From assembly GCA_963675755.2 (NCBI GenBank), contig CAXXMD010000003.1:3168001-3232000 (forward strand): 64,000 bases of DNA, in the 5' to 3' direction. Positions 22,059-34,555 of the stretch are shown here, in pieces. The first letter of the stretch is position 1, and each line of letters opens with the position of its first letter. A program made the translations under genes and the position numbers. Origin of the DNA: a bacterium (GTDB lineage: Bacteria > Zhuqueibacterota > Zhuqueibacteria > Residuimicrobiales > Krinioviventaceae). The notes below the pieces were generated by a model. That model worked only from the letters and a program-made list of their open reading frames with translations. It had not been told where the DNA came from and did no database searches.

Positions 22059-24789
22059 ATGATTATGAGAAAAATTTGTTTATTTTTTTTACTGCTAATG
22101 ATGTTTGGAAATGTATTTTCACAAACTCTCTACAGATCAATAACCAGACAACCATCATCAATCGAATGTATTCTAAAGTATTATCCACCAAATGGTGGTT
22201 GGACATCATATGATGGTGCTTCTTATCATATTGGTAATGTAACTTTTCCTAATGTTGATGATCCAGAGGAAGATGATATTTATCTATATAGGTCATACTT
22301 TGTATTTAACGTTAGTTCAATACCAGATAATGCTACAATTACTCAAGTTGAGGTGGTTTATTCAACAGGTGATAATGGTGATTATACCTTCAGACTTACA
22401 AATATTCCTTCCGTTGAAGGGATTCGGTCCGAAGATTGGGGGCCAATTGGTTCTAGTACTATCCTTGAAGATGAGCTGGATTATGGGAGTGATAGTTTTT
22501 ATTCGACAAATTTTAAGAATGCAGTGACTGTTGCTTTAGAGAGTAATAATCTAATCATTGGTGCTTTATCAGAAGATGAATGGACACATGGTTCATTGAC
22601 TACTTTAAGTTTAAGTTTGAATATTGATTATTCTTATCCTGCTGATGCGGTTGATATTATAGTAAAAAATGATCTATACGGTGCAACGGGCGGAAACGTT
22701 GGCGTAGCGATTTATCCGAATTCACTGGTTTCCCATTCCAGTCCCTATTCATTTACCGCTTATGAAGAAGATAGGTTGAATTTGGCAGCTTATGACAACC
22801 AAAGCGTTAGCGGTAAAACCTGGTTTTTTAATGATACGGAATATGGTGTAGAGAATAGTGTGTGGAGAAAATATTCAAACGGAAGTTATTCGACAATAGC
22901 TAATACTGCAAATCTAACAACTAATCAATTAACTACAAGTGATGATGACGCTAATTTTATTGCTTATTTGAAATCATCAACTTATACAACTAGTGGAACA
23001 TTGTCTTATGATGAAATTTGGTTTACTTCTTTTACTTTGGAGGACGATGTTTTTGTGCCTGATGGAAAAACACTCACTATTGCCAGTGGTACAAGCATCA
23101 CTCTTGATGATTGTTTTATAAAGTGTCAGGGGACAGGGCGAATTGTAAATAATGGAACAGTTTCATCAGGTATTTCTGTTAAAGATGGTTCAACAATAAA
23201 AGGTTATTATTATACTGTTGGTGACGCAATGACAAATGCGCTTACCGGGCAATCAGTGTATTTGTCTTTCAGGTAGTTATTCCGGTTGGATCAGCATGAG
23301 AAGTGGAATTGATGTTATAGGATCAGGATCAACAAGTACGTATGTTGGGCAGGTTGCCTTTAATAGTCAAACGAATTGTGAACTCAAAAACCTCAATACT
23401 TCTAATCTGGATATCTCTGGTGGCAACTCTACTACCAAAGTGACCAATGTTCGAACCAACTATCGAATTGAGCTCAATAATAGCAGCGCGTTTTTAAGCA
23501 ATGTAACGTTTTTACAAGGGGATTATTATCCTGGAATAGATGTTAATGATGGCAATCCTGTACTGTATAATATAACTTCAACAACCACCCGATCAAGTTC
23601 CGGAGACCCGGCTGTTTATCTTCATGGAGGAGCAAGTCCCAATATTTATGTTGGTTCAATCCGTAATAAGAATAGAGGTATTCAGATCGGTAGTTCCTGC
23701 TATGCAACAACAGATGCTGATTTTTGTTCAAATACCTGGGACATGTACGCCCTTAGTGGTGCCTGGGATTCTGATATAGATGGTTATTTCAGTGCTCAGG
23801 ACCCTGAGGATTGTTTATATTATCCAAGTGGTGATCTGGAAGATTATTATGAGATAGGAAGTTGGAATTACTGCGGTGCTGGTGTTGCGAAACATGAAAC
23901 TGGTGACAAGATCGAGTCAATGGTTGGTGGTAGTATAACAGATAAAGGATTAAAAGGGGCGTTCAAGGAGTATAACAATATCCGTAAAATTATGATAAAT
24001 GATGCCAAGACCGGAAACATGGACCCCAAATTATATGAGACAGAGTTTGAAGCATTGCTCACAACATTTGCGGATTACGCTCAAACCGGTGATGAGAAAA
24101 ACAGTCCACTTGCCTTAAAGTTATATCAGAATATCTGTTTTGATCTTGAAAAACCGGAACAGTTCTTGTCGTTACTGAATAAGGTAAAAACTGATAACAA
24201 GAGCGAAGCATTGGCCCCGCATCTCGCACATCTAACTATTTCGTATTACAGTTATTTAAATGATGTGAAAAGTGCCTTGATCGAGACAGAAATGTTTGGT
24301 AAGAATTTTCCAAAATCTGATCTGTTGGTAGAAGTTTTGTATAACAAGGGTGTATTGTACCGTTTTGGTTTAGAGGATTGCGACAACGCCGCTAAAGCCT
24401 ATTCGGAAGTGATTGAGCGTTTCCCTGACCACCCTACAGCTGAATCTGCAAGAGCATCACTTGAGCGTTTGGGTGTTTCGAAACCGGAAACGGAAGAGGA
24501 AAGTATTGAACCTATTAAATTAGCATTGGGTAACTTTCCTAATCCATTTAATCCAACCACAGAAATTCATTTTTCATTGCCAGAAACCGGCTTTGTAAGC
24601 ATCAAGGTTTTTGATGTAATGGGGCGTCTGGTTACAACGTTGGTAAGGGCAAATATGAACGCGGGCGCGCACCAGGTGATCTGGAACAGCCGGGACCAGT
24701 ATGGTAATACCGTAGCGTCTGGCATGTATTTTTATCGTATGCAATACCAGGACCAGACCCTAACTCAAAAAATGGTACTTATGAGGTAA
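22059..24789 (+). pseudogene. Secreted protein (beta-helix, TPR, FlgD-Ig/T9SS tail) split by a 1-nt frameshift at about 23267
   Basis: ORF 22059-23276 has the signal peptide; ORF 23236-24789 has TPR (AYSEVIERFPDHP) and NFPNPFNP tail but no signal. Deleting one T from TCTTTCA gives continuous GQSVYLSSGSYSG. Confidence 0.7.
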
Positions 24790-26441: not shown

Positions 26442-26459
26442 TTGAGAATTTTTTCACAA
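26442..26459. promoter_or_regulatory. Rex-like operator
   Basis: TTGAGAA-TTTT-TTCACAA, one mismatch from TTGTGAA-N4-TTCACAA. Confidence 0.5.
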
Positions 26460-26461
26460 AG

Positions 26462-26477
26462 TGTTTCATTTGAAACA
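26462..26477. promoter_or_regulatory. Upstream activator sequence for a sigma54 enhancer-binding protein
   Basis: Palindrome TGTTTCA-TT-TGAAACA (TGT-N10-ACA), about 120-135 bp upstream of the -24 box; further TGAAACA half-sites at 26432, 26541 and 26551 (inverted). Confidence 0.6.
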
Positions 26478-26597
26478 TTTTGTTTCTTGTGCGATAAGTT
26501 ACTGTTTTTAAATGTTGTCCGCAAGTATGTTCCGTAATTTTGAAACACGCTGTTTCATGGTGTTTGTTTTGTTTGTTGTTTTTATTGGGTTTATGGC

Positions 26598-26613
26598 TGG
26601 TACGCTGTTTGCA
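26598..26613 (+). promoter_or_regulatory. Sigma54 (-24/-12) promoter
   Basis: TGGTACG-CTGT-TTGCA versus consensus TGGCACG-N4-TTGCW. Confidence 0.75.
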
Positions 26614-26714
26614 GTCGTGTTCCAAAAATCGGCAGATGCCGTTTAAAAGTTACAAGACTATGAAAAACAGTGGATTATATATCTGCTGAATTCACTAAAA
26701 ACCTGGAGTTTAAA

Positions 26715-28019
26715 GTGAAACAACACATTGCAGGATTTTTAATTTTACTGATGGGATTATTTGTACTGTTTTCCTGTACAAAGAAATATCCCGACCAAAC
26801 CCAGATGGATTTGGCAATTGGTGGAGATGGGTGTACCAGCTGTCATATGAATACCGATCTGTTAAAGGAGGTAGCTACCCCTCAGGAAGATACCGAGGGT
26901 GATGCGGGCGAAGGCTGAGGCGGGGAAGTGGCTCCGTTGGAGACATGGCAGATGGTTTCAATTAAAGAATCTTTTCTAAGTACCTCACATGGTAAACTGG
27001 GCTGTACAGCTTGTCACTTTGGTAATGCCAAAGCAAAGACAAAAGAAGAAGCCCACGTAGACGACTTTGTTGCAAGTCCCAGTATGCAGCCGGATGTATA
27101 TTGTGAAGGTTGTCATGCTGAAATTACCAATGATCATAATGGTAGTTTGCACAAAAATCTCGATGGATATTACAAACGTATTGAAAAGCGCCTGGGTTAT
27201 GATATTTCAGGTGATGAAATGATTGTTGGCGAATTCAATAAAGAATGCGGCAAGTGTCATGCTAGCTGCGGACAGTGTCACGTTTCCCGACCTGTATCCG
27301 TTAAAGGTGGTTTCCTGGATGGACACACCTTCCAGCGTGAACCGACCATGAAAGACAATTGTACAGCATGTCATGGCAGTCGTGTTGGCGCCGAATTCTT
27401 TGGTGAGAATGAAGGCATGAGAGCAGACGTTCATTGGATCCCCAATGTAAAACGTTGTGTTTTCTGTCACGATGGCAATTCTATGCATAGTTCAACGGAT
27501 GGTGCAACCCACCGCTATGAAGACCAGGATATGACCCGTTGTGAAGACTGCCATATGGATGACAAAGAAGCTAATGAATATCATCTTACGCACTGGAAAG
27601 ATGACGGCGGATTGTCATGCCAGGTTTGTCATTCTCAGGACTATAAGAACTGTAATAGCTGCCATACCGGTGGCGCGGGAATTACCGGCAGTTCGTATAT
27701 GGATTTCAAGATTGCCAAGAACCCGATCAAGACAGATTACCGGAACTATGATGTTGTAACGGTACGTCATATTCCAATTTCTCGTGATACCTATACAAGC
27801 TGGGGTATTACTGACTTGCCGAATTACAATGTTGAACCCACCTGGAAATATGCAACACCGCATAATATTCAGCGTTGGACAGCTCGTACAGATACAACCG
27901 GTAGTACAGCTTGTTATGAAAAGTGTCATAATTCAGATTATTACCTGACGCTTGAAGACTTGTTTGAAGAAGAAGTTGATGCAAACAAGGATTACGTATT
28001 AACACGAAATGATAACTAG
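26715..28019 (+). CDS. Predicted selenocysteine-containing multiheme cytochrome c lipoprotein (Sec68; 10 CXXCH + 1 CX3CH)
   Basis: GTG start with SD GGAG and lipobox LFSC; CTSCH precedes the in-frame TGA at 26916-26918; the frame continues GGC GGG GAA GTG into the 363-aa multiheme ORF, which has no export signal of its own. Confidence 0.8.
26919..26946 (+). promoter_or_regulatory. Candidate bacterial SECIS element
   Basis: GTG-G-CTCC-GTT-GGAG-A-CAT hairpin; the apical loop starts with GU, 17 nt after the UGA. Confidence 0.6.
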
Positions 28020-28055
28020 AACAAATAACAAATAATACAAAATGGAGGAAACTCG

Positions 28056-29060
28056 ATGTTAAAGAGAACACTTTTATTGTTACTGGGTTTGTCACTGGTC
28101 TTGTTCCTGTTTGGTTGTAGCGATGATGATGACAGTCCTGCTGAAACCGAAACTGTAGATGAATTTAGTTTAATGACAGATGTTGGTGATGTATATTTTA
28201 CAGATTATACCACAACCGGTGGCAATGCTGTGAATGTTTCTATTTCTGCTGTATTCCCGATTTTGGCTGATGGCGATGCATCAAATGATCCATTGATCCT
28301 TGATTATCGTTCAGCTGCTGACTATGCAACCGGTCACTTGACAGGTGCTATCAATATTTCATTGGGAAGTTTGATGGATAAAATTGAAGATGGTACCATA
28401 ACCAAAGACAAGACCGTTTTGAACGTGTGTTATACCGGTCAAACCGCAAGTTTTGCTACCAGTATTTTGAATCTGTTGGGTTATGAAGCAGAAAACCTAC
28501 TTTATGGTATGTGTGGTGTTACTACAGATGCTTCTGTCAATGGTACTGACAAATGGAGCTCTCAGGTTGCATCTGATGAATTTGCAGCGCAATTGGTTGC
28601 TTCTGTCTCTACTACTACTACTGAATATGATTTTCCGTCAATTTCTACAAGCCAAACAACTGCAGAAGAAGTTATTACAGAACAATTTAAATCTGTAGGT
28701 GCAAGTGGTTGGACTATTTCTGCCGGAGATGTTTTTGCTAATCCTTCCGGTTATTTTGTCATCAATTACTGGCCACAGGCTGAATACGAAGCACCGGGTC
28801 ATATTCCGGGTGCATATTGTTTCCCACCCAAATCTTCTTTGCAGAAAGCAGAAATGTTGAAACTGCTGCCTACTGACAAAACAATCGTTGTATATTGCTA
28901 TACAGGTCAAACCTCTGCTCAGGTTACTGCTTATCTGCGTATGTTGGGTTATGACGCGAAAAGCTTGTTGTATGGTGTAAATGGTTTTGCTTATAATGCA
29001 TTAGCCGGCCATAAATACTCTGCACCAGCAGACGATTACTCAGCAATTATCGTAAAATAA
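28056..29060 (+). CDS. Tandem rhodanese-domain lipoprotein (sulfurtransferase)
   Basis: Lipobox LFGC; ILDYRSAADYATGHLTGAINI and GHIPGA; two active-site loops CYTGQTA and CYTGQTS. Confidence 0.88.
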   Translation: MLKRTLLLLLGLSLVLFLFGCSDDDDSPAETETVDEFSLMTDVGDVYFTDYTTTGGNAVNVSISAVFPILADGDASNDPLILDYRSAADYATGHLTGAINISLGSLMDKIEDGTITKDKTVLNVCYTGQTASFATSILNLLGYEAENLLYGMCGVTTDASVNGTDKWSSQVASDEFAAQLVASVSTTTTEYDFPSISTSQTTAEEVITEQFKSVGASGWTISAGDVFANPSGYFVINYWPQAEYEAPGHIPGAYCFPPKSSLQKAEMLKLLPTDKTIVVYCYTGQTSAQVTAYLRMLGYDAKSLLYGVNGFAYNALAGHKYSAPADDYSAIIVK

Positions 29061-29070
29061 ATCCTGCAAA

Positions 29071-29115
29071 AATCCGAGACTGTGAAATTTTTTACAGTCT
29101 CGGGTTGCTTTTTTG
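29071..29115 (+). terminator. Intra-operon hairpin/terminator
   Basis: AATCCGAGACTGT...ACAGTCTCGGGTT followed by GCTTTTTT. Confidence 0.7.
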
Positions 29116-29181
29116 TTTTTTATATATTATCATTCAGTATAATCAAATATGCGCGGTTCCAAATATATCGCGGGAAAAATT

Positions 29182-30360
29182 ATGAAAAAAATCATTCCAA
29201 TTCTGGTGCTGTTATCAAGTATGTGCCTGCAAGCACAGGGCCTGGTATTTCACGGAAAGGTCAGGAACTCTGTTTACAGTTACGAGAGTGATGAACAGCA
29301 TAATCGGGCTTATCAGTATTTGCGTTTCAGCCTTGCAACTGCTGATAAAAAGTTCCGTATCAATTCATCTGTACGTGCGCTTACAGATTTTAACGAAACC
29401 ATAGACAGCGATCTTCGTTTCAAAGCTTATGCGTTGAATCTTGAAGCCAACGATCTTTTAGGCCGGGTAGATTTAAAGCTGGGACGCCAGTTCTTACATC
29501 CTGGAACTGTTTTAGGCGCTCTCGATGGTCTGTCTGGCTCTGTCAAGATCAATAAAATGTTTTCTGTAGAGGGTTATGCCGGAACAGAATCACATTTTGA
29601 TCGTATTTTCAAGGTCTACGAGCTGGATGACAGTTTTGTTGCCGGTGGTTTGTTTAATGTTAAAAATCTGTATTCAACCAATCTGCAGCTTTTATATTTG
29701 CATAAATCCAATGTTGATACAACCTTGTTTCAACTCGCTGGTTTAAATGTCACCAATTATACTTTGGATAAAACGCATTTTAATGTTCAGGCGCATTATG
29801 ATATGCAAAATGAACGTATGCATCGCTTGATTGCTTCTGTTCGTCAGGAGTTGTTGGGCAATATGGCGGTTAACCTCAGGTATAAAAGCCAATATCCCCA
29901 GGTTTACACAAACTCGTTTTTTTCTATTTTTTCCCCCAAGGCTTATAAACAATATCATGCAGGGCTGAGTTACGAATTTTATAAAGATTATTATATCAGT
30001 ACGCAATACCAGCTGGTCCAGTTTGATGATGGTAACGCAAACAAGGTGTTTTTTACTGTAAATGGAATGAATGCCAGTGCCGGAGTTTTATATGAAAGCG
30101 GTTACGCAGGCGATCAATTATCTCTTATGTTTGATTATGCATATGAAGTGATTGAAAATCTCTATGCGTCAATTAATCTTGATTATTCGAAATACAGAAC
30201 AGAAGAATTGTATGAATATGATAATCAATTGGCAAACGCGTTGCGCTTGAATTATCGACTCAACAAGAACTGGATCATTGATTTGGAATATCAATGGTTG
30301 AATAACAAATTTACAGAAAATGATTCCCGTTTTCTGAATCATATTACGTATAGATGGTAA
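29182..30360 (+). CDS. Outer-membrane beta-barrel (porin) protein
   Basis: Signal peptide, alternating amphipathic strands, LKLGRQF...LDG motif, C-terminal aromatic ITYRW. Confidence 0.78.
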   Translation: MKKIIPILVLLSSMCLQAQGLVFHGKVRNSVYSYESDEQHNRAYQYLRFSLATADKKFRINSSVRALTDFNETIDSDLRFKAYALNLEANDLLGRVDLKLGRQFLHPGTVLGALDGLSGSVKINKMFSVEGYAGTESHFDRIFKVYELDDSFVAGGLFNVKNLYSTNLQLLYLHKSNVDTTLFQLAGLNVTNYTLDKTHFNVQAHYDMQNERMHRLIASVRQELLGNMAVNLRYKSQYPQVYTNSFFSIFSPKAYKQYHAGLSYEFYKDYYISTQYQLVQFDDGNANKVFFTVNGMNASAGVLYESGYAGDQLSLMFDYAYEVIENLYASINLDYSKYRTEELYEYDNQLANALRLNYRLNKNWIIDLEYQWLNNKFTENDSRFLNHITYRW

Positions 30361-30375
30361 TTGAAGGATTTTCCA

Positions 30376-31242
30376 ATGAAATATAAAATTGGTATTTTAG
30401 CATTATTCCTGTTGGTTTCTGTTTCTTTGGGACAGAATGTAGAACTGATCTTTTCACATCAGTTCCATGCTGTAGATGTTGAGGCCGAATGTTCTGCTTG
30501 TCACGTTGCGGCTGACACCAGTACAATGGCAATGCATAATCTGCTTCCTGATATGGAGACCTGTTATACCTGTCATGATGAAGATACGGATTGTACCGTA
30601 TGTCACAAAGACCCTGACAATGCTGTCCCGTATCCGCGTATTGAGCAATATATTGCCAAGTTTCCACACGCAACACATGTGGAAAATGAGGTTGCATGCG
30701 AAACATGCCATGCCGGTGTAGCAGCAAGCAGCAATATTCTTGACAGTCATTTGCCTGATATGGGTGCATGTATGAATTGTCATACTGAACTTGAACAGCC
30801 GGACTATTGTATTACCTGCCATGCAGAATCTGAAGATTTGATGCCAGCTGACCATAAACTGGACTGGACAAAATCGCATGGATTTGCAGCACAGGCTGAT
30901 CAGGAATGTTCAATTTGTCATACAGAAGACCAGTGTCTTGATTGTCACCAGGGTGACAACCTTGATCACAAAGTGCACCCGTTGAATTTTGTCAACAATC
31001 ATGCTATCTTTGCCAAGGGCAACAAGGACAACTGTTTGACCTGTCATGAAGAACTGCTGTCATGTGTCGATTGTCATCAACAGGAACTGGTAATGCCCGC
31101 AAACCATTCCAGTGCAGGATGGTCCAACTTTACAACCGGTGGCCGCCATGCACGTGAAGCCCTTCAGGATCTCGATTCCTGTGTTAGTTGTCATAATGAC
31201 GCTGTAGGTGATCCGGTTTGTTTGACCTGTCATCAACAATAA
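30376..31242 (+). CDS. Periplasmic dodecaheme cytochrome c (cytochrome c3/c7-like repeats)
   Basis: Signal peptide; 12 CXXCH motifs counted; FSHQFH and FPHATH distal-His motifs. Confidence 0.9.
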   Translation: MKYKIGILALFLLVSVSLGQNVELIFSHQFHAVDVEAECSACHVAADTSTMAMHNLLPDMETCYTCHDEDTDCTVCHKDPDNAVPYPRIEQYIAKFPHATHVENEVACETCHAGVAASSNILDSHLPDMGACMNCHTELEQPDYCITCHAESEDLMPADHKLDWTKSHGFAAQADQECSICHTEDQCLDCHQGDNLDHKVHPLNFVNNHAIFAKGNKDNCLTCHEELLSCVDCHQQELVMPANHSSAGWSNFTTGGRHAREALQDLDSCVSCHNDAVGDPVCLTCHQQ

Positions 31243-31264: not shown

Positions 31265-31299
31265 AAAGGTGCTGTAATTTTTTTACAGCACCTTTTTTT
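31265..31299. terminator. Bidirectional terminator
   Basis: AAAGGTGCTGTAA...TTACAGCACCTTT plus a T-tract, between convergent genes. Confidence 0.8.
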
Positions 31300-31314: not shown

Positions 31315-31974
31315 TTATAGGATTTGCATTTGATCGGCAGGATATTGCTGCAGTAGTTTGAATGCTTCATCTGGTGATGTAGTTTTACTCAACCAAATGT
31401 CCTGATCGTTGTCTTTGAGTATGACCGGCATTCGGGTATGAGGGATTTGTAGCAATGTTTCATTGGCTTCAATGGTAATCAAGGTGCAGGAAAAGATTTG
31501 ATCATTACCCGGTAATGTGCAAATATCCCACAAAGCTGCAAAAGAAAATATTTCCTGATCTAATAATTGAATACGTTTTTCAACTCTTTTTTGATCTTTG
31601 GGGGCCAGTTTTTTATCCGGCCACTCAAAGAATGAAGTTGCGGGGATAATGCATCTTTGTCCCTTTTTCCAAGCGGATTTATAAGAAGCTTTTTCTGTCA
31701 GCGTTTCATAGCGGGCATTAAAGGTGCTAAATTTTTTTTCTTTTAGGGGTTTGTTCCACCATGAAGGAATAATGTCCCAGCGAAAGAGGTTAATCTTACG
31801 GACACCATTGTCTTCCAGAATAACAGGTACTTTTGATTGGCTTTCGCCCCGTGCGGGAAAGAAATCCTGCGTGCTAAAGAGCTTGTCTAATTCTTCGGGA
31901 GGAATGTGTTCCAGTCCATATTTTTCAACAAGGTTTTTGAGCCTCATATAGTTTATGGCAAAATGACCACACAT
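31315..31974 (-). CDS. SOS response-associated peptidase (SRAP; YedK/HMCES family)
   Basis: N-terminal MCG, FNARYET, RCIIPATSFFEW, HTRMPVIL. Confidence 0.9.
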   Translation of the reverse strand: MCGHFAINYMRLKNLVEKYGLEHIPPEELDKLFSTQDFFPARGESQSKVPVILEDNGVRKINLFRWDIIPSWWNKPLKEKKFSTFNARYETLTEKASYKSAWKKGQRCIIPATSFFEWPDKKLAPKDQKRVEKRIQLLDQEIFSFAALWDICTLPGNDQIFSCTLITIEANETLLQIPHTRMPVILKDNDQDIWLSKTTSPDEAFKLLQQYPADQMQIL

Positions 31975-32177: not shown

Positions 32178-33530
32178 ATGGATGCGCTATATCTTTCTCG
32201 ATTACAGTTTGCGCTAACAATTGCGTTCCATTATCTGTTTCCTCCCATTTCTATCGGTCTGGGTTTATTACTGGTATTCATGGAGGGGATGTATTTAAAA
32301 ACCAAAAATCAGTTGTATCACCGGATGACCCGCTTTTGGGTTAAGGTTTTCGGACTTGTGTTCGCACTGGGTGTTGCATCTGGTATTGTGATGGAGTTCC
32401 AGTTTGGTACAAACTGGTCTACCTATTCACGCTTTGTGGGTGATGTCTTTGGCAGTGCGCTTGCTGCTGAAGGTATTTTCGCTTTTTTCCTGGAATCCGG
32501 GTTCCTCGCAGTTTTGTTATTCGGCTGGAATAAGGTTAAACCCAGAACTCATTTCTTTTCAACAATTATGGTGGCGTTTGGTGCGCATTTCAGTGCCGTT
32601 TGGATTGTTGTTGCAAATTCATGGCAGCAAACTCCGGCGGGTTATCATATTGTAGAAACTGCTAATGGTGCACGCGCTGAAATTGTAGACTTTTGGGCCA
32701 TGCTTTTTAATCCATCAACCGTTGACAGATTGAGTCATACACTTATGGGAGCATGGCAGGCCGGTGCGTTCTTTGTGATCAGTGTAAGTGCATGGTATTT
32801 AATTAAAAACAAACATGTTGATTTTGCCAAGGCAGGACTTAAAATAGCTCTTATTTTTGCAGCAGCAGCATCCATGCTGCAATTGGTTACAGGACATTCA
32901 AGTGCTGTTACCGTATCTGAAACACAGCCAGCCAAGCTTGCTGCAATGGAAGCTCATTTTGATGAAATGGCACCTGCAGATCTCTATCTTTTTGGTTGGG
33001 TGAATTCAGATAATCAACGAGTTAATTTTGGTGTTCGCATACCGGGTATGCTCAGTTTTCTGGTTTACGGTGATTCAAACAAACCATTAAAAGGTTTAAA
33101 TGCATTCCCTGAGGATGAACATCCGCCTGTAAATGTGGTGTTTCAAGCATACCATATTATGGTAGCAGTGGGTATGTTTCTCATCCTGATCTCCTGGTTG
33201 GGATTGGTATTATTATGGAAAGATAAAGTCTATAAAACCAGATGGTTGTTATGGGTGTATGTTTTTTCAGTATTGGGCCCTCAAATTGCCAATCAACTTG
33301 GGTGGATAACTGCTGAAGTTGGCAGACAACCCTGGATTGTTTATGGTTTATTGAAAACCAAGGATGCTTATTCTCCGGTTGTTAGTGGCGGACAGGTTTT
33401 AACATCAATTATTCTTTTCGGATTTATTTATCTATTATTGTTTGCCTTGTTTGTCTATTTGCTGAATGAAAAAATCAAAAACGGACCGGAGCTTGAGGAG
33501 AAAACCATAGAGGAGGGACATTTGGCATGA
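32178..33530 (+). CDS. cydA: Cytochrome bd ubiquinol oxidase subunit I
   Basis: [50 protein letters not shown]. Confidence 0.97.
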
Positions 33531-34555
33531 GTTTAGTATTTGATTTAAATACAATCTGGTTCTTCCTGGTGGGTATACTTTTAACCGGGTATGCAATTCT
33601 TGATGGATTTGATTTGGGAATTGGTGCATTGCACCTTTTTGCTGAAACTGATCATGATCGTAGAATAATGCTCAACTCTATTGGACCCATCTGGGATGGA
33701 AATGAAGTATGGCTGGTTACCGGGGGTGGTGCATTGTTTGCCGCTTTTCCCGAAGTTTATGCTACTGCATTTTCAGGCTTTTATATGGCCCTTATGTTAT
33801 TGTTATTTAGTCTCATATTCCGGGCTGTTGCTATAGACTTTCGCAGCAAGCAGTCTTCAAAAGTTTGGCGTAAAACCTGGGATATCAGTTTTACTATTAG
33901 TAGCATAGTTGCTTCGTTGCTTATTGGTACTGCACTTGGAAATGTAGCGTGGGGTGTGCCCTTGGACGCAAGTCACGAGTATGCCGGTTCTTTCTGGACG
34001 CTTTTGAATCCCTATTCTTTATTGGTAGGTGTTTTGGTTGTTGTATTGTTCATGATGCATGGTGCTCTTTATGGTATCCTCAAAACTGAAGGGGATTTGC
34101 AGAAAAAATTGGGTAAATTGTTCAGAACCAATTTTGTCTTGTTTGGCATTGGTTATATAGTTGTAACCATTGCAACATTATTGTTTGCTGATAATATTAC
34201 TGAACATTACAAATCAAGTCCTGCTTTGATGGTTTTTCCTGTTATTAATGTTTTATTGATTGTAAATGTTTGGTGGCAGCACCATAGAGGTAAAGACCTT
34301 GCAGCGTTCTTATCTTCTTGCTTTACGATACTGTTGCTTATGTTGATCTTTGGGTTGGGTATTTATCCGGATATGTTGTATTCTAATCCTGTTGCCGGTA
34401 ATACACTGGATATTTACAATGCCGCATCTTCACAAAAAACTTTAAAAATCATGCTGACAATCGCTTTGATCGGTATGCCCTTTGTGATTATGTATACTTC
34501 AACTATTTTTTGGATATTCAGAGGTAAGGTCAAGCTGGATTCTAGTAGTTATTAA
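33527..34555 (+). CDS. cydB: Cytochrome bd ubiquinol oxidase subunit II
   Basis: LDGFDLGIG, IGPIWDGNEVWL; ATGA overlap with cydA. Confidence 0.97.
   Translation: MSLVFDLNTIWFFLVGILLTGYAILDGFDLGIGALHLFAETDHDRRIMLNSIGPIWDGNEVWLVTGGGALFAAFPEVYATAFSGFYMALMLLLFSLIFRAVAIDFRSKQSSKVWRKTWDISFTISSIVASLLIGTALGNVAWGVPLDASHEYAGSFWTLLNPYSLLVGVLVVVLFMMHGALYGILKTEGDLQKKLGKLFRTNFVLFGIGYIVVTIATLLFADNITEHYKSSPALMVFPVINVLLIVNVWWQHHRGKDLAAFLSSCFTILLLMLIFGLGIYPDMLYSNPVAGNTLDIYNAASSQKTLKIMLTIALIGMPFVIMYTSTIFWIFRGKVKLDSSSY

Follow-up and report, generated by a model that had tools for sequence, protein, structure and literature searches.

How could a bacterium of the phylum Zhuqueibacterota use a cluster of four genes in which a multiheme cytochrome with an in-frame UGA codon is followed by a tandem rhodanese, an outer-membrane barrel and a second multiheme cytochrome? 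The cluster is located at 26715-31242 on the + strand of a 64,000-nt stretch of contig CAXXMD010000003.1 (assembly GCA_963675755.2). The whole stretch is called the window here, and coordinates without a contig label are positions in it. The genes were named g1 (selenocysteine [Sec] cytochrome), g2 (tandem rhodanese), g3 (barrel), and g4 (12-heme cytochrome). An initial annotation had described four co-oriented genes and proposed a conduit for sulfur or selenium respiration. All four genes were present in one orientation, and the cluster was single-copy in the 6.48 Mb genome. The reading favoured here, which we consider moderately probable, is a sigma-54-type controlled, envelope-located system that reduces sulfur compounds, with the roles of g1-g4 proposed below.

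For comparison, one genome per species was scanned, which gave at least 266 genomes with a relative of g1. The best 80 loci were used for the counts.

Probable selenocysteine codon in g1

26715-28019, + strand: g1, Sec-containing 11-heme lipoprotein cytochrome, 434 amino acids (aa) from the GTG at 26715, with a predicted fold like that of octaheme tetrathionate reductase (OTR)
26916-26918, + strand: in-frame TGA, read as selenocysteine, residue 68 of the 434-aa protein, motif GEG-U-GG
26929-26945, + strand: hairpin resembling a selenocysteine insertion sequence (SECIS), 7-pair stem, loop GUU, beginning 13 nt after the U of the UGA, identified by covariation

g1 is whole only when the TGA at 26916-26918 is decoded as selenocysteine. 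At the aligned site, 69 of the 80 loci had TGA, nine had TGC or TGT (Cys), one had CGG (Arg), and in one the contig was too short. The motif G-E-G-U-G-G was near-invariant, and G67, G69, and G70 were invariant in 25 full-length sequences. In a quick tree, the Cys forms were placed in two clades, one of them nested within a Sec clade, and the Arg form was nested too.

The hairpin (alignment columns 14-30) was analyzed for covariation in the 69 UGA-bearing genes, with 500 shuffles and slid registers as the comparison. Its cells were paired in 76.4% of cases, against 66.6% in the shuffles and 40-51% in the slid registers. Compensatory changes on both sides were found in six of the seven pairs, and the observed score was matched by 0 of the 500 shuffles. 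Several of these changes alter the encoded amino acids symmetrically (for example, GAU...GAU and GGG...CCC), which argues for selection on the RNA. Because the Cys-type clade likewise retains hairpin-like complementarity, coding constraint has some share in the signal. The copy in the window has a G/A mismatch at one of its seven pairs. Folding 26910-26990 as a single sequence gave no improvement over shuffles (z 0.07), and the hairpin was visible only across the 69 sequences.

The genome encodes the Sec machinery: selA (580 bits), selB (371 bits), and selD (377 bits) were all above the curated cut-offs, and a tRNA-Sec was located at C2:368512-368607. A conserved UGA, Cys homologues, a stem-loop after the UGA, and Sec machinery, which are the generic marks of a bacterial selenoprotein, were thus all observed. 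Elsewhere in the host, TGA serves as a stop, for example at the end of cydA.

If the UGA were a true stop, the region would hold either a broken gene or two genes, an 82-codon monoheme lipoprotein reading frame (from the GTG at 26670; approximately 67 codons from 26715) and a decaheme protein of 363 aa. Public gene calls agree with such a division. A database search for g1 homologues returned 2724 proteins, and in 117 of the best 120, which were inspected for start position, the call begins just past the UGA site. The other three are full length, and one of them has Cys in the same context (AGEG-C-GG). Also in line with a stop, no Rfam SECIS family matched the whole window at the gathering score, and 26850-27050 gave chance-level matches only at E <= 10. 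A c-type cytochrome requires a signal peptide for export and heme attachment, and the open reading frame (ORF) downstream of the UGA has none. This, the frame and motif kept across the UGA in 69 of the 80 species with Cys codons in nine more, the hairpin with its compensatory changes, and the full Sec machinery all stand against a stop, which we regard as very improbable. Comparative sequence evidence makes the Sec reading of g1 very probable, as had been claimed for a Sec-containing multiheme lipoprotein. Public protein sets routinely cut members of the family off at the UGA, and the family has been overlooked.

As a side observation, the host selD gene (C3:1425405-1426334, L010) carries one in-frame TGA, and selenophosphate synthetase is probably itself a selenoprotein in this organism.

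Heme sites and fold of g1

Ten CXXCH motifs and a conserved CX3CH give g1 11 heme sites, which specifies the number for what had been called a multiheme protein. All 11 sites were conserved across the 80 sequences, and a lipobox was present in 77 of 78. Against these 11 hemes, only nine invariant free His and one near-invariant free His were found in the 80 sequences. R159, R223, R351, and Y310 were also invariant, and apart from the heme-motif, lipobox, and Sec-site positions no Cys was. The His shortfall and the invariant Arg residues would fit a multiheme enzyme of the catalytic type, in which one heme is special and an anion-binding pocket is present.

The g1 model had a mean predicted local distance difference test score (pLDDT) of 73. 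A structure aligner independent of Foldseek superposed residues 89-434 on 1sp3, the Shewanella oneidensis OTR (residues 1-435), with Z 8.6 and a root mean square deviation of 4.2 Å over 242 residues at 21% identity. The next match had Z 3.6, and MtrA had Z 3.4. When the g1 family profile was used, 1sp3 ranked first (E 2.6e-6), with several heme motifs aligned in order. Foldseek with the g1 model returned nothing at E <= 0.001 (1sp3 at E 0.65), and phmmer of g1 against PDB sequences had a best E of 0.1. By the structure aligner and the profile search, the modelled body of g1 shares the fold of OTR.

g1 matched no curated family. TIGR04315 was missing from its match list, and 0 of 25 family members matched that model at E <= 1. 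OTR is a sulfur-compound reductase that resembles g1 in fold and in the order of heme motifs. It has eight hemes, whereas g1 has 11. Of the three extra hemes, the N-terminal extension holds two and the tandem motif CGKCHASCGQCH the third. Sec and the lipid anchor are found in g1 and not in OTR. In the alignment of hidden Markov models, Lys56 and Cys64 of OTR, which we take to be functional residues, aligned with no conserved Lys or Cys of g1.

Rhodanese partner

28056-29060, + strand: g2, tandem-rhodanese lipoprotein (Pfam PF00581), with the acidic run SDDDD after the lipid Cys

g2 matched PF00581 in two stretches (E 4e-25), in agreement with the two-domain rhodanese lipoprotein of the initial annotation. 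Both active-site Cys, C125 (VCYTGQTAS) and C281 (YCYTGQTSA), were invariant in 46 homologues. A rhodanese gene adjoins g1 in 78 of the 80 loci (69 downstream, nine upstream; gaps of up to 1297 nt). The two others are L068, where the contig ends, and L039, which is the sole locus with Arg at the Sec site and also the sole locus with full flanks that lacks the rhodanese. The arrangement of the cluster is far beyond chance, and the in silico survey supports the rhodanese as the fixed partner of g1 in a pairing that spans phyla.

A comparable division of labour is found in Wolinella succinogenes, where the periplasmic rhodanese-type protein Sud binds polysulfide sulfur and passes it to the reductase Psr. 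The same split is proposed for g2 and g1. Psr is a molybdopterin enzyme of the inner membrane, whereas g1 is a heme/Sec protein and both g1 and g2 are lipoproteins. Most g2 homologues have similar acidic runs after the lipid Cys. In the available part of PMC5080379, SDDDD is given as the consensus surface-export signal of Bacteroides fragilis lipoproteins, which also works in Capnocytophaga. The run in g2 is identical to this signal, and g2 may accordingly be exported to the cell surface.

Barrel and periplasmic cytochrome

29071-29106 (feature listed to 29116), + strand: terminator-like hairpin (16 pairs) with a T-run in the g2-g3 gap, stronger than the one after g4
29149-30360, + strand: g3, predicted 22-strand outer-membrane beta-barrel, likely start ATG 29182
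30361-31242, + strand: g4, periplasmic 12-heme cytochrome, likely start ATG 30376, predicted to lie inside g3
31265-31295, + strand: terminator-like hairpin (13 pairs) with a T-run, which closes the cluster

The g3 model (alignment of 27 homologues) contained 22 strands and a signal helix, with a mean pLDDT of 83. Among Pfam families there was only a weak match to BBP2_2 (E 0.013) and none at the gathering score. Foldseek with g3 gave 338 PDB matches at E <= 0.001, and the matches listed were all outer-membrane barrels, with the FimD/PapC ushers first. The protein Atlas clusters nearest to g3 had no common Pfam family. g4 has exactly 12 CXXCH motifs, conserved in 30 homologues, and a signal peptide with no lipobox. 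The outer-membrane barrel and the 12-CXXCH periplasmic cytochrome were thus recovered as first described.

The spacing between g3 and g4 is 0-16 nt. Their complex was predicted from the mature proteins, each with its own alignment, in three runs and with three controls. The score was 0.79 (runs 0.76-0.83), against 0.00 for the best control; the mark used for complexes was reached by 58 of 80 solved complexes and by two of 110 mismatched pairs. The runs agreed in at least 92% of contacts, and the partner pLDDT was at least 77. Residues 142-291 of g4, its C-terminal half, touched residues 33-403 of g3, the whole barrel chain. The prediction supports binding, with g4 inserted in the g3 lumen, and suggests that the barrel can accommodate the cytochrome.

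All four genes were found together in 28 of the 80 loci. In about seven further loci there was partial or weak evidence of g3 or g4, and neither gene was found in 46. The gene-neighbourhood survey therefore bears out a fixed pair of g1 and g2 and not a constant four-gene unit: with the rhodanese in 78 loci and the barrel and 12-heme cytochrome in 28, the core module is g1 with g2, and g3 with g4 is an add-on. The add-on occurs mainly in the window's own clade, in records labelled KSB1, Zhuqueibacterota, or Calditrichota. The initial annotation had also placed the four genes in one operon closed by a terminator. The terminator-like hairpin after g4 and the co-orientation were confirmed, and a single transcription unit is not assured because a terminator-like hairpin sits between g2 and g3. 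In eight of 21 related loci, the g2-g3 gap holds a comparable hairpin with a T-rich tail.

The cluster shares with Shewanella MtrCAB and Geobacter Pcc (OmaB/OmbB/OmcB) a periplasmic multiheme cytochrome, here predicted to lie in a large barrel, and a co-encoded lipoprotein multiheme cytochrome. The parts differ. MtrB has 26 strands, whereas g3 has 22 predicted strands and no match to the MtrB/PioB family. g4 scored 17.5 bits on the MtrA/DmsE model TIGR03508, for which the cut-off is 192. The outer partner, g1, resembles a Sec enzyme and comes with a rhodanese.

The shared layout raises an alternative in which g3, g4, and g1 form a general extracellular electron conduit (MtrCAB/Pcc-like) for metal oxides, humics, or partner cells, with Sec and the rhodanese as accessories for protection or repair. 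g4 and additional cytochromes of the clusters match the MtrC/MtrF domain family PF22113. Some clusters moreover contain type IX secreted multiheme cytochromes: at L035:10417-12177 and L039:6248-7993, cytochromes of approximately 580 aa that combine MtrC/MtrF-like domains with a type IX secretion tail are encoded between g1/g2 and g3. However, the invariant partner of g1 is the rhodanese and not the conduit; Sec, the invariant Arg, and the distal His shortfall point to catalysis over wiring; and the g1 fold is closer to OTR than to MtrA by the Z scores given above. A mere conduit is rather unlikely in our judgement.

Regulation

26462-26477, + strand: palindrome TGTTTCA-N2-TGAAACA, candidate upstream activating sequence, single occurrence in the genome
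26541-26557, + strand: palindrome TGAAACA-CGC-TGTTTCA, candidate site for a sigma-54 enhancer-binding protein
26598-26613, + strand: sigma-54-type -24/-12 match TGGTACGCTGTTTGCA (GG-N10-GC), 117 nt before the g1 start

A gene for a sigma-54 activator with PAS, AAA, and HTH domains stands beside g1 in 36 of the 80 loci, and a gene for a small TPR protein lies directly upstream of g1 in 24. In the host of the window, both of these genes have been relocated to a different contig, and the operator in front of g1 remains. The activator at C2:323280-324644 is the closest homologue of the neighbouring activator (60% identity). The pattern TGAAACA-N0-6-TGTTTCA occurs three times in the genome: at 26541, in the gap that separates the activator gene from its TPR gene (C2:324732), and at one other place. 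In relatives, 34 of 71 near-matches (up to two mismatches) were within 1 kb upstream of g1, in 21 loci, often as pairs 70-80 nt apart. A candidate operator shared by g1 and the sigma-54 activator gene is thus shown in silico. The palindrome at 26462 lies inside a terminator-like hairpin (26456-26483).

For the promoter search, the -24/-12 consensus was taken from general knowledge. TGGTACGCTGTTTGCA was the sole strict match on both strands of the 64 kb window. As a general feature upstream of g1, the strict motif was not borne out (four of 75 loci); the relaxed motif was found in eight of 73 loci, with approximately two expected. Possible sigma-54 dependence of the cluster is a lead and not a finding.

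The relocated genes belong to a longer set (C2:323280-331719) in which activator and TPR genes are followed by a His-rich 125-aa ORF and a resistance-nodulation-division (RND)-type efflux set (408, 519, and 1029 aa).

Comparison with the Geobacter ext cluster and MccSep

In the available parts of the sources, the Geobacter sulfurreducens cluster GSU2940-2936 combines a Sec multiheme cytochrome (ExtKL) with the rhodanese-like lipoprotein ExtH and the porin-like barrel ExtI of approximately 45 kDa, and it adjoins the 12-heme cytochrome ExtM. The analogy with this cluster, drawn in the initial annotation, stands for the layout, which parallels ExtH/ExtI/ExtKL, and fails for the cytochrome: g1 is unrelated to ExtKL in heme number, Sec position, and fold. 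The gene order is also different, and neither ExtJ nor ExtNOPQS is found here.

MccSep, the first Sec-heme polysulfide reductase, was published in 2026 and occurs mainly in Desulfobacterota and Nitrospirota. It is a soluble periplasmic tetramer with five hemes, Sec325 in a C-terminal immunoglobulin-like domain, and a Cys-ligated (His/Cys) active-site heme; the Sec is in a short Gly-containing loop with two conformations (PMC13510729). It is encoded beside a rhodanese and a porin and also reduces selenite (PMC13510729). g1, in contrast, has 11 heme sites, Sec68 in an N-terminal extension, a lipid anchor, and an OTR-like fold, and it has no invariant free Cys that could serve as a distal heme ligand. 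The g1 family, found in at least 266 species-representative genomes and 2724 database proteins, is unrelated to MccSep in sequence and fold.

Homology of g1 to ExtKL/MccSep was considered and rejected: NF040886 had no match at g1 (hmmscan, E <= 0.1), and 0 of 25 family members matched it at E <= 1. Across the genome, NF040886 scored at most 35 bits (cut-off 250), and this at loci other than g1. NF040942 (ExtJ) and NF040941 (an unrelated motif family) gave no meaningful match, and the NCBIfam scan matches for g2 and g3 contained no ExtH or ExtI name, no model aimed at either having been used. No MccSep entry was among the PDB search matches of g1, in a structure library to 2026-04-08 that may not include MccSep. 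The matches of approximately 35 bits were at C2:662544-663323 and C2:783356-784150 (L093-L096; ORFs of 380 and 455 aa), and these ORFs may be distant multiheme relatives.

In the selenoprotein table of a 2026 review, as far as its available text goes, the cytochrome-type entries were only ExtKL, the GSU2204 family, and the OTR family, and the g1 family was missing. The literature on Sec-linked cytochromes, supplementary tables not covered, likewise yielded only ExtKL/MccSep, the GSU2204 family, and the OTR family, and not the g1 family.

The MccSep precedent suggests sulfur-compound reduction for the cluster in the window. By analogy, the best-supported reading is that the cluster would work like ExtH/ExtI/MccSep and would be built from unrelated parts. 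The same precedent could be taken toward selenium, with the cluster serving selenite or tellurite reduction or detoxification, or the acquisition of selenium for selenoproteins, and with the rhodanese as a selenium carrier. Reduction of selenite and tellurite was the first activity to be connected with the Geobacter ext cluster, and rhodaneses can carry selenium according to references of the same source (PMC5877670, available in part). The orthologous activator gene of the host, moreover, stands beside an RND efflux system. MccSep itself prefers polysulfide over selenite sevenfold by Vmax/K0.5 (PMC13510729), and a 23-heme wire of two cytochromes across the outer membrane would be a large outlay for a trace element. 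A weaker argument is that the family is common in metagenome-assembled genomes with sediment or sulfidic-habitat labels in the record titles. A primary role in selenium metabolism is, on balance, quite improbable.

Proposed function

For the reduction of sulfur compounds, the following mechanism is proposed. g1 would be the catalytic subunit, a lipid-anchored 11-heme OTR-fold cytochrome with Sec in the glycine-rich, probably mobile GEG-U-GG loop of its N-terminal extension. The selenolate would attack S-S (or Se-O) bonds, those of polysulfide or sulfane sulfur or possibly of tetrathionate or selenite, and the resulting adduct would be reduced via the g1 heme chain. g2 would bind sulfane sulfur in persulfide form and pass it on to g1. 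Threaded in g3, g4 would conduct periplasmic electrons through the outer membrane to g1. We infer the substrate, the reductive direction, the surface location, and that g1 contacts g2 and g3/g4.

Electrons might also flow the other way, or both ways. In that case g1 and g2 would act at the envelope in the manner of TsdA or SoxAX and oxidise thiosulfate, sulfide, or sulfane sulfur, and electrons would pass inward via g4 and g3 to the respiratory chain, for example to cytochrome bd. Porin-cytochrome conduits also serve iron oxidisers, and no result of the analysis fixes the direction. Multiheme sulfur enzymes such as TsdA work in both directions (PMC13510729). The genes cydAB follow 0.9 kb downstream (32178-34555); however, they are set off by the terminator and an opposite-strand SRAP gene and are not among the clusters recurring in at least three of the 80 loci. 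The known Sec-dependent chalcogen chemistry, that of MccSep and thioredoxin reductase, is reductive (PMC13510729). NrfC-like and NrfD-like quinol-side modules, found near g1 in eight and five loci, respectively, are usual for reductases, though not exclusive to them. We consider the oxidative or bidirectional use unlikely.

Several points weigh against the reduction of sulfur compounds at the cell surface as proposed. The fold does not fix the substrate, since nitrite and hydroxylamine are further substrates of OTR. In the g1 model, residues 61-69, which form the Sec loop, had a pLDDT below 50, so the placement of the loop relative to the hemes is not fixed by the model. The complex prediction of g3 and g4 could partly reflect memory of the solved MtrAB. 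Of the 46 loci without g3 and g4, 25 are flanked on each side by at least 3 kb; with the conduit missing from at least these loci and a hairpin following g2, g3/g4 may serve another acceptor. The N-terminus of g1 is C-TKKYPD here and has no acidic export signal, so g1 may face the periplasm while g2 is outside; g1 of other clades begins with C-S-E-E-D-D or C-S-D-D-D-D. The model is at its weakest where it would place g1 on the surface. Finally, Caldithrix abyssi, a cultured species for which the family is known from its phylum only, did not respire sulfur or thiosulfate in tests, according to the available part of PMC5317091.

A bolder form of the sulfur-reduction reading would make Sec the sixth ligand, or the immediate neighbour, of the one heme without a conserved distal His. 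This would be a natural His/Sec-ligated c-type heme in an OTR-fold enzyme, placed on the surface of cells of the Fibrobacterota-Chlorobiota-Bacteroidota group (KSB1, Calditrichota) that respire insoluble sulfur via an undescribed porin-cytochrome family, and a second, independent selenium-heme sulfur reduction besides MccSep. Taken as a whole, it is an unlikely combination.

If sulfur-compound reduction holds, abundant sediment heterotrophs, such as KSB1, Calditrichota, and Ignavibacteria, would gain an unrecognised molybdenum-free route in the sulfur cycle, and selenium-assisted heme chemistry would have arisen twice. The cluster also offers a compact, new candidate porin-cytochrome conduit and a clear candidate operator-activator pair.

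Neighbouring genes

The flanks of the cluster are unrelated to it. They include a class II aldolase gene on the opposite strand. Downstream are the SRAP peptidase gene (31315-31974, opposite strand) and then cydAB on the same strand as the cluster, where the TGA stop of cydA overlaps the ATG of cydB; the terminator and the SRAP gene stand between cydAB and the cluster. The window also encodes a 517-aa protein (23236-24789) that combines TPR repeats with a C-terminal sorting domain for type IX secretion, and the host thus has a Bacteroidota-style secretion system.

The gene order around g1 varies between phyla, since in two Chloroflexota-labelled loci (L075:9346-10263 and L084:4085-4951) an NrfC-like 4Fe-4S gene follows 8-35 nt after g1 and the rhodanese is upstream. 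An additional lipoprotein cytochrome with three to eight hemes recurs in 23 loci, after g4 or g2. In the genome of the window it is encoded away from the cluster, where four tandem tblastn matches (43-45% identity) at C2:575738-577561 indicate what is apparently a repeated-domain protein.

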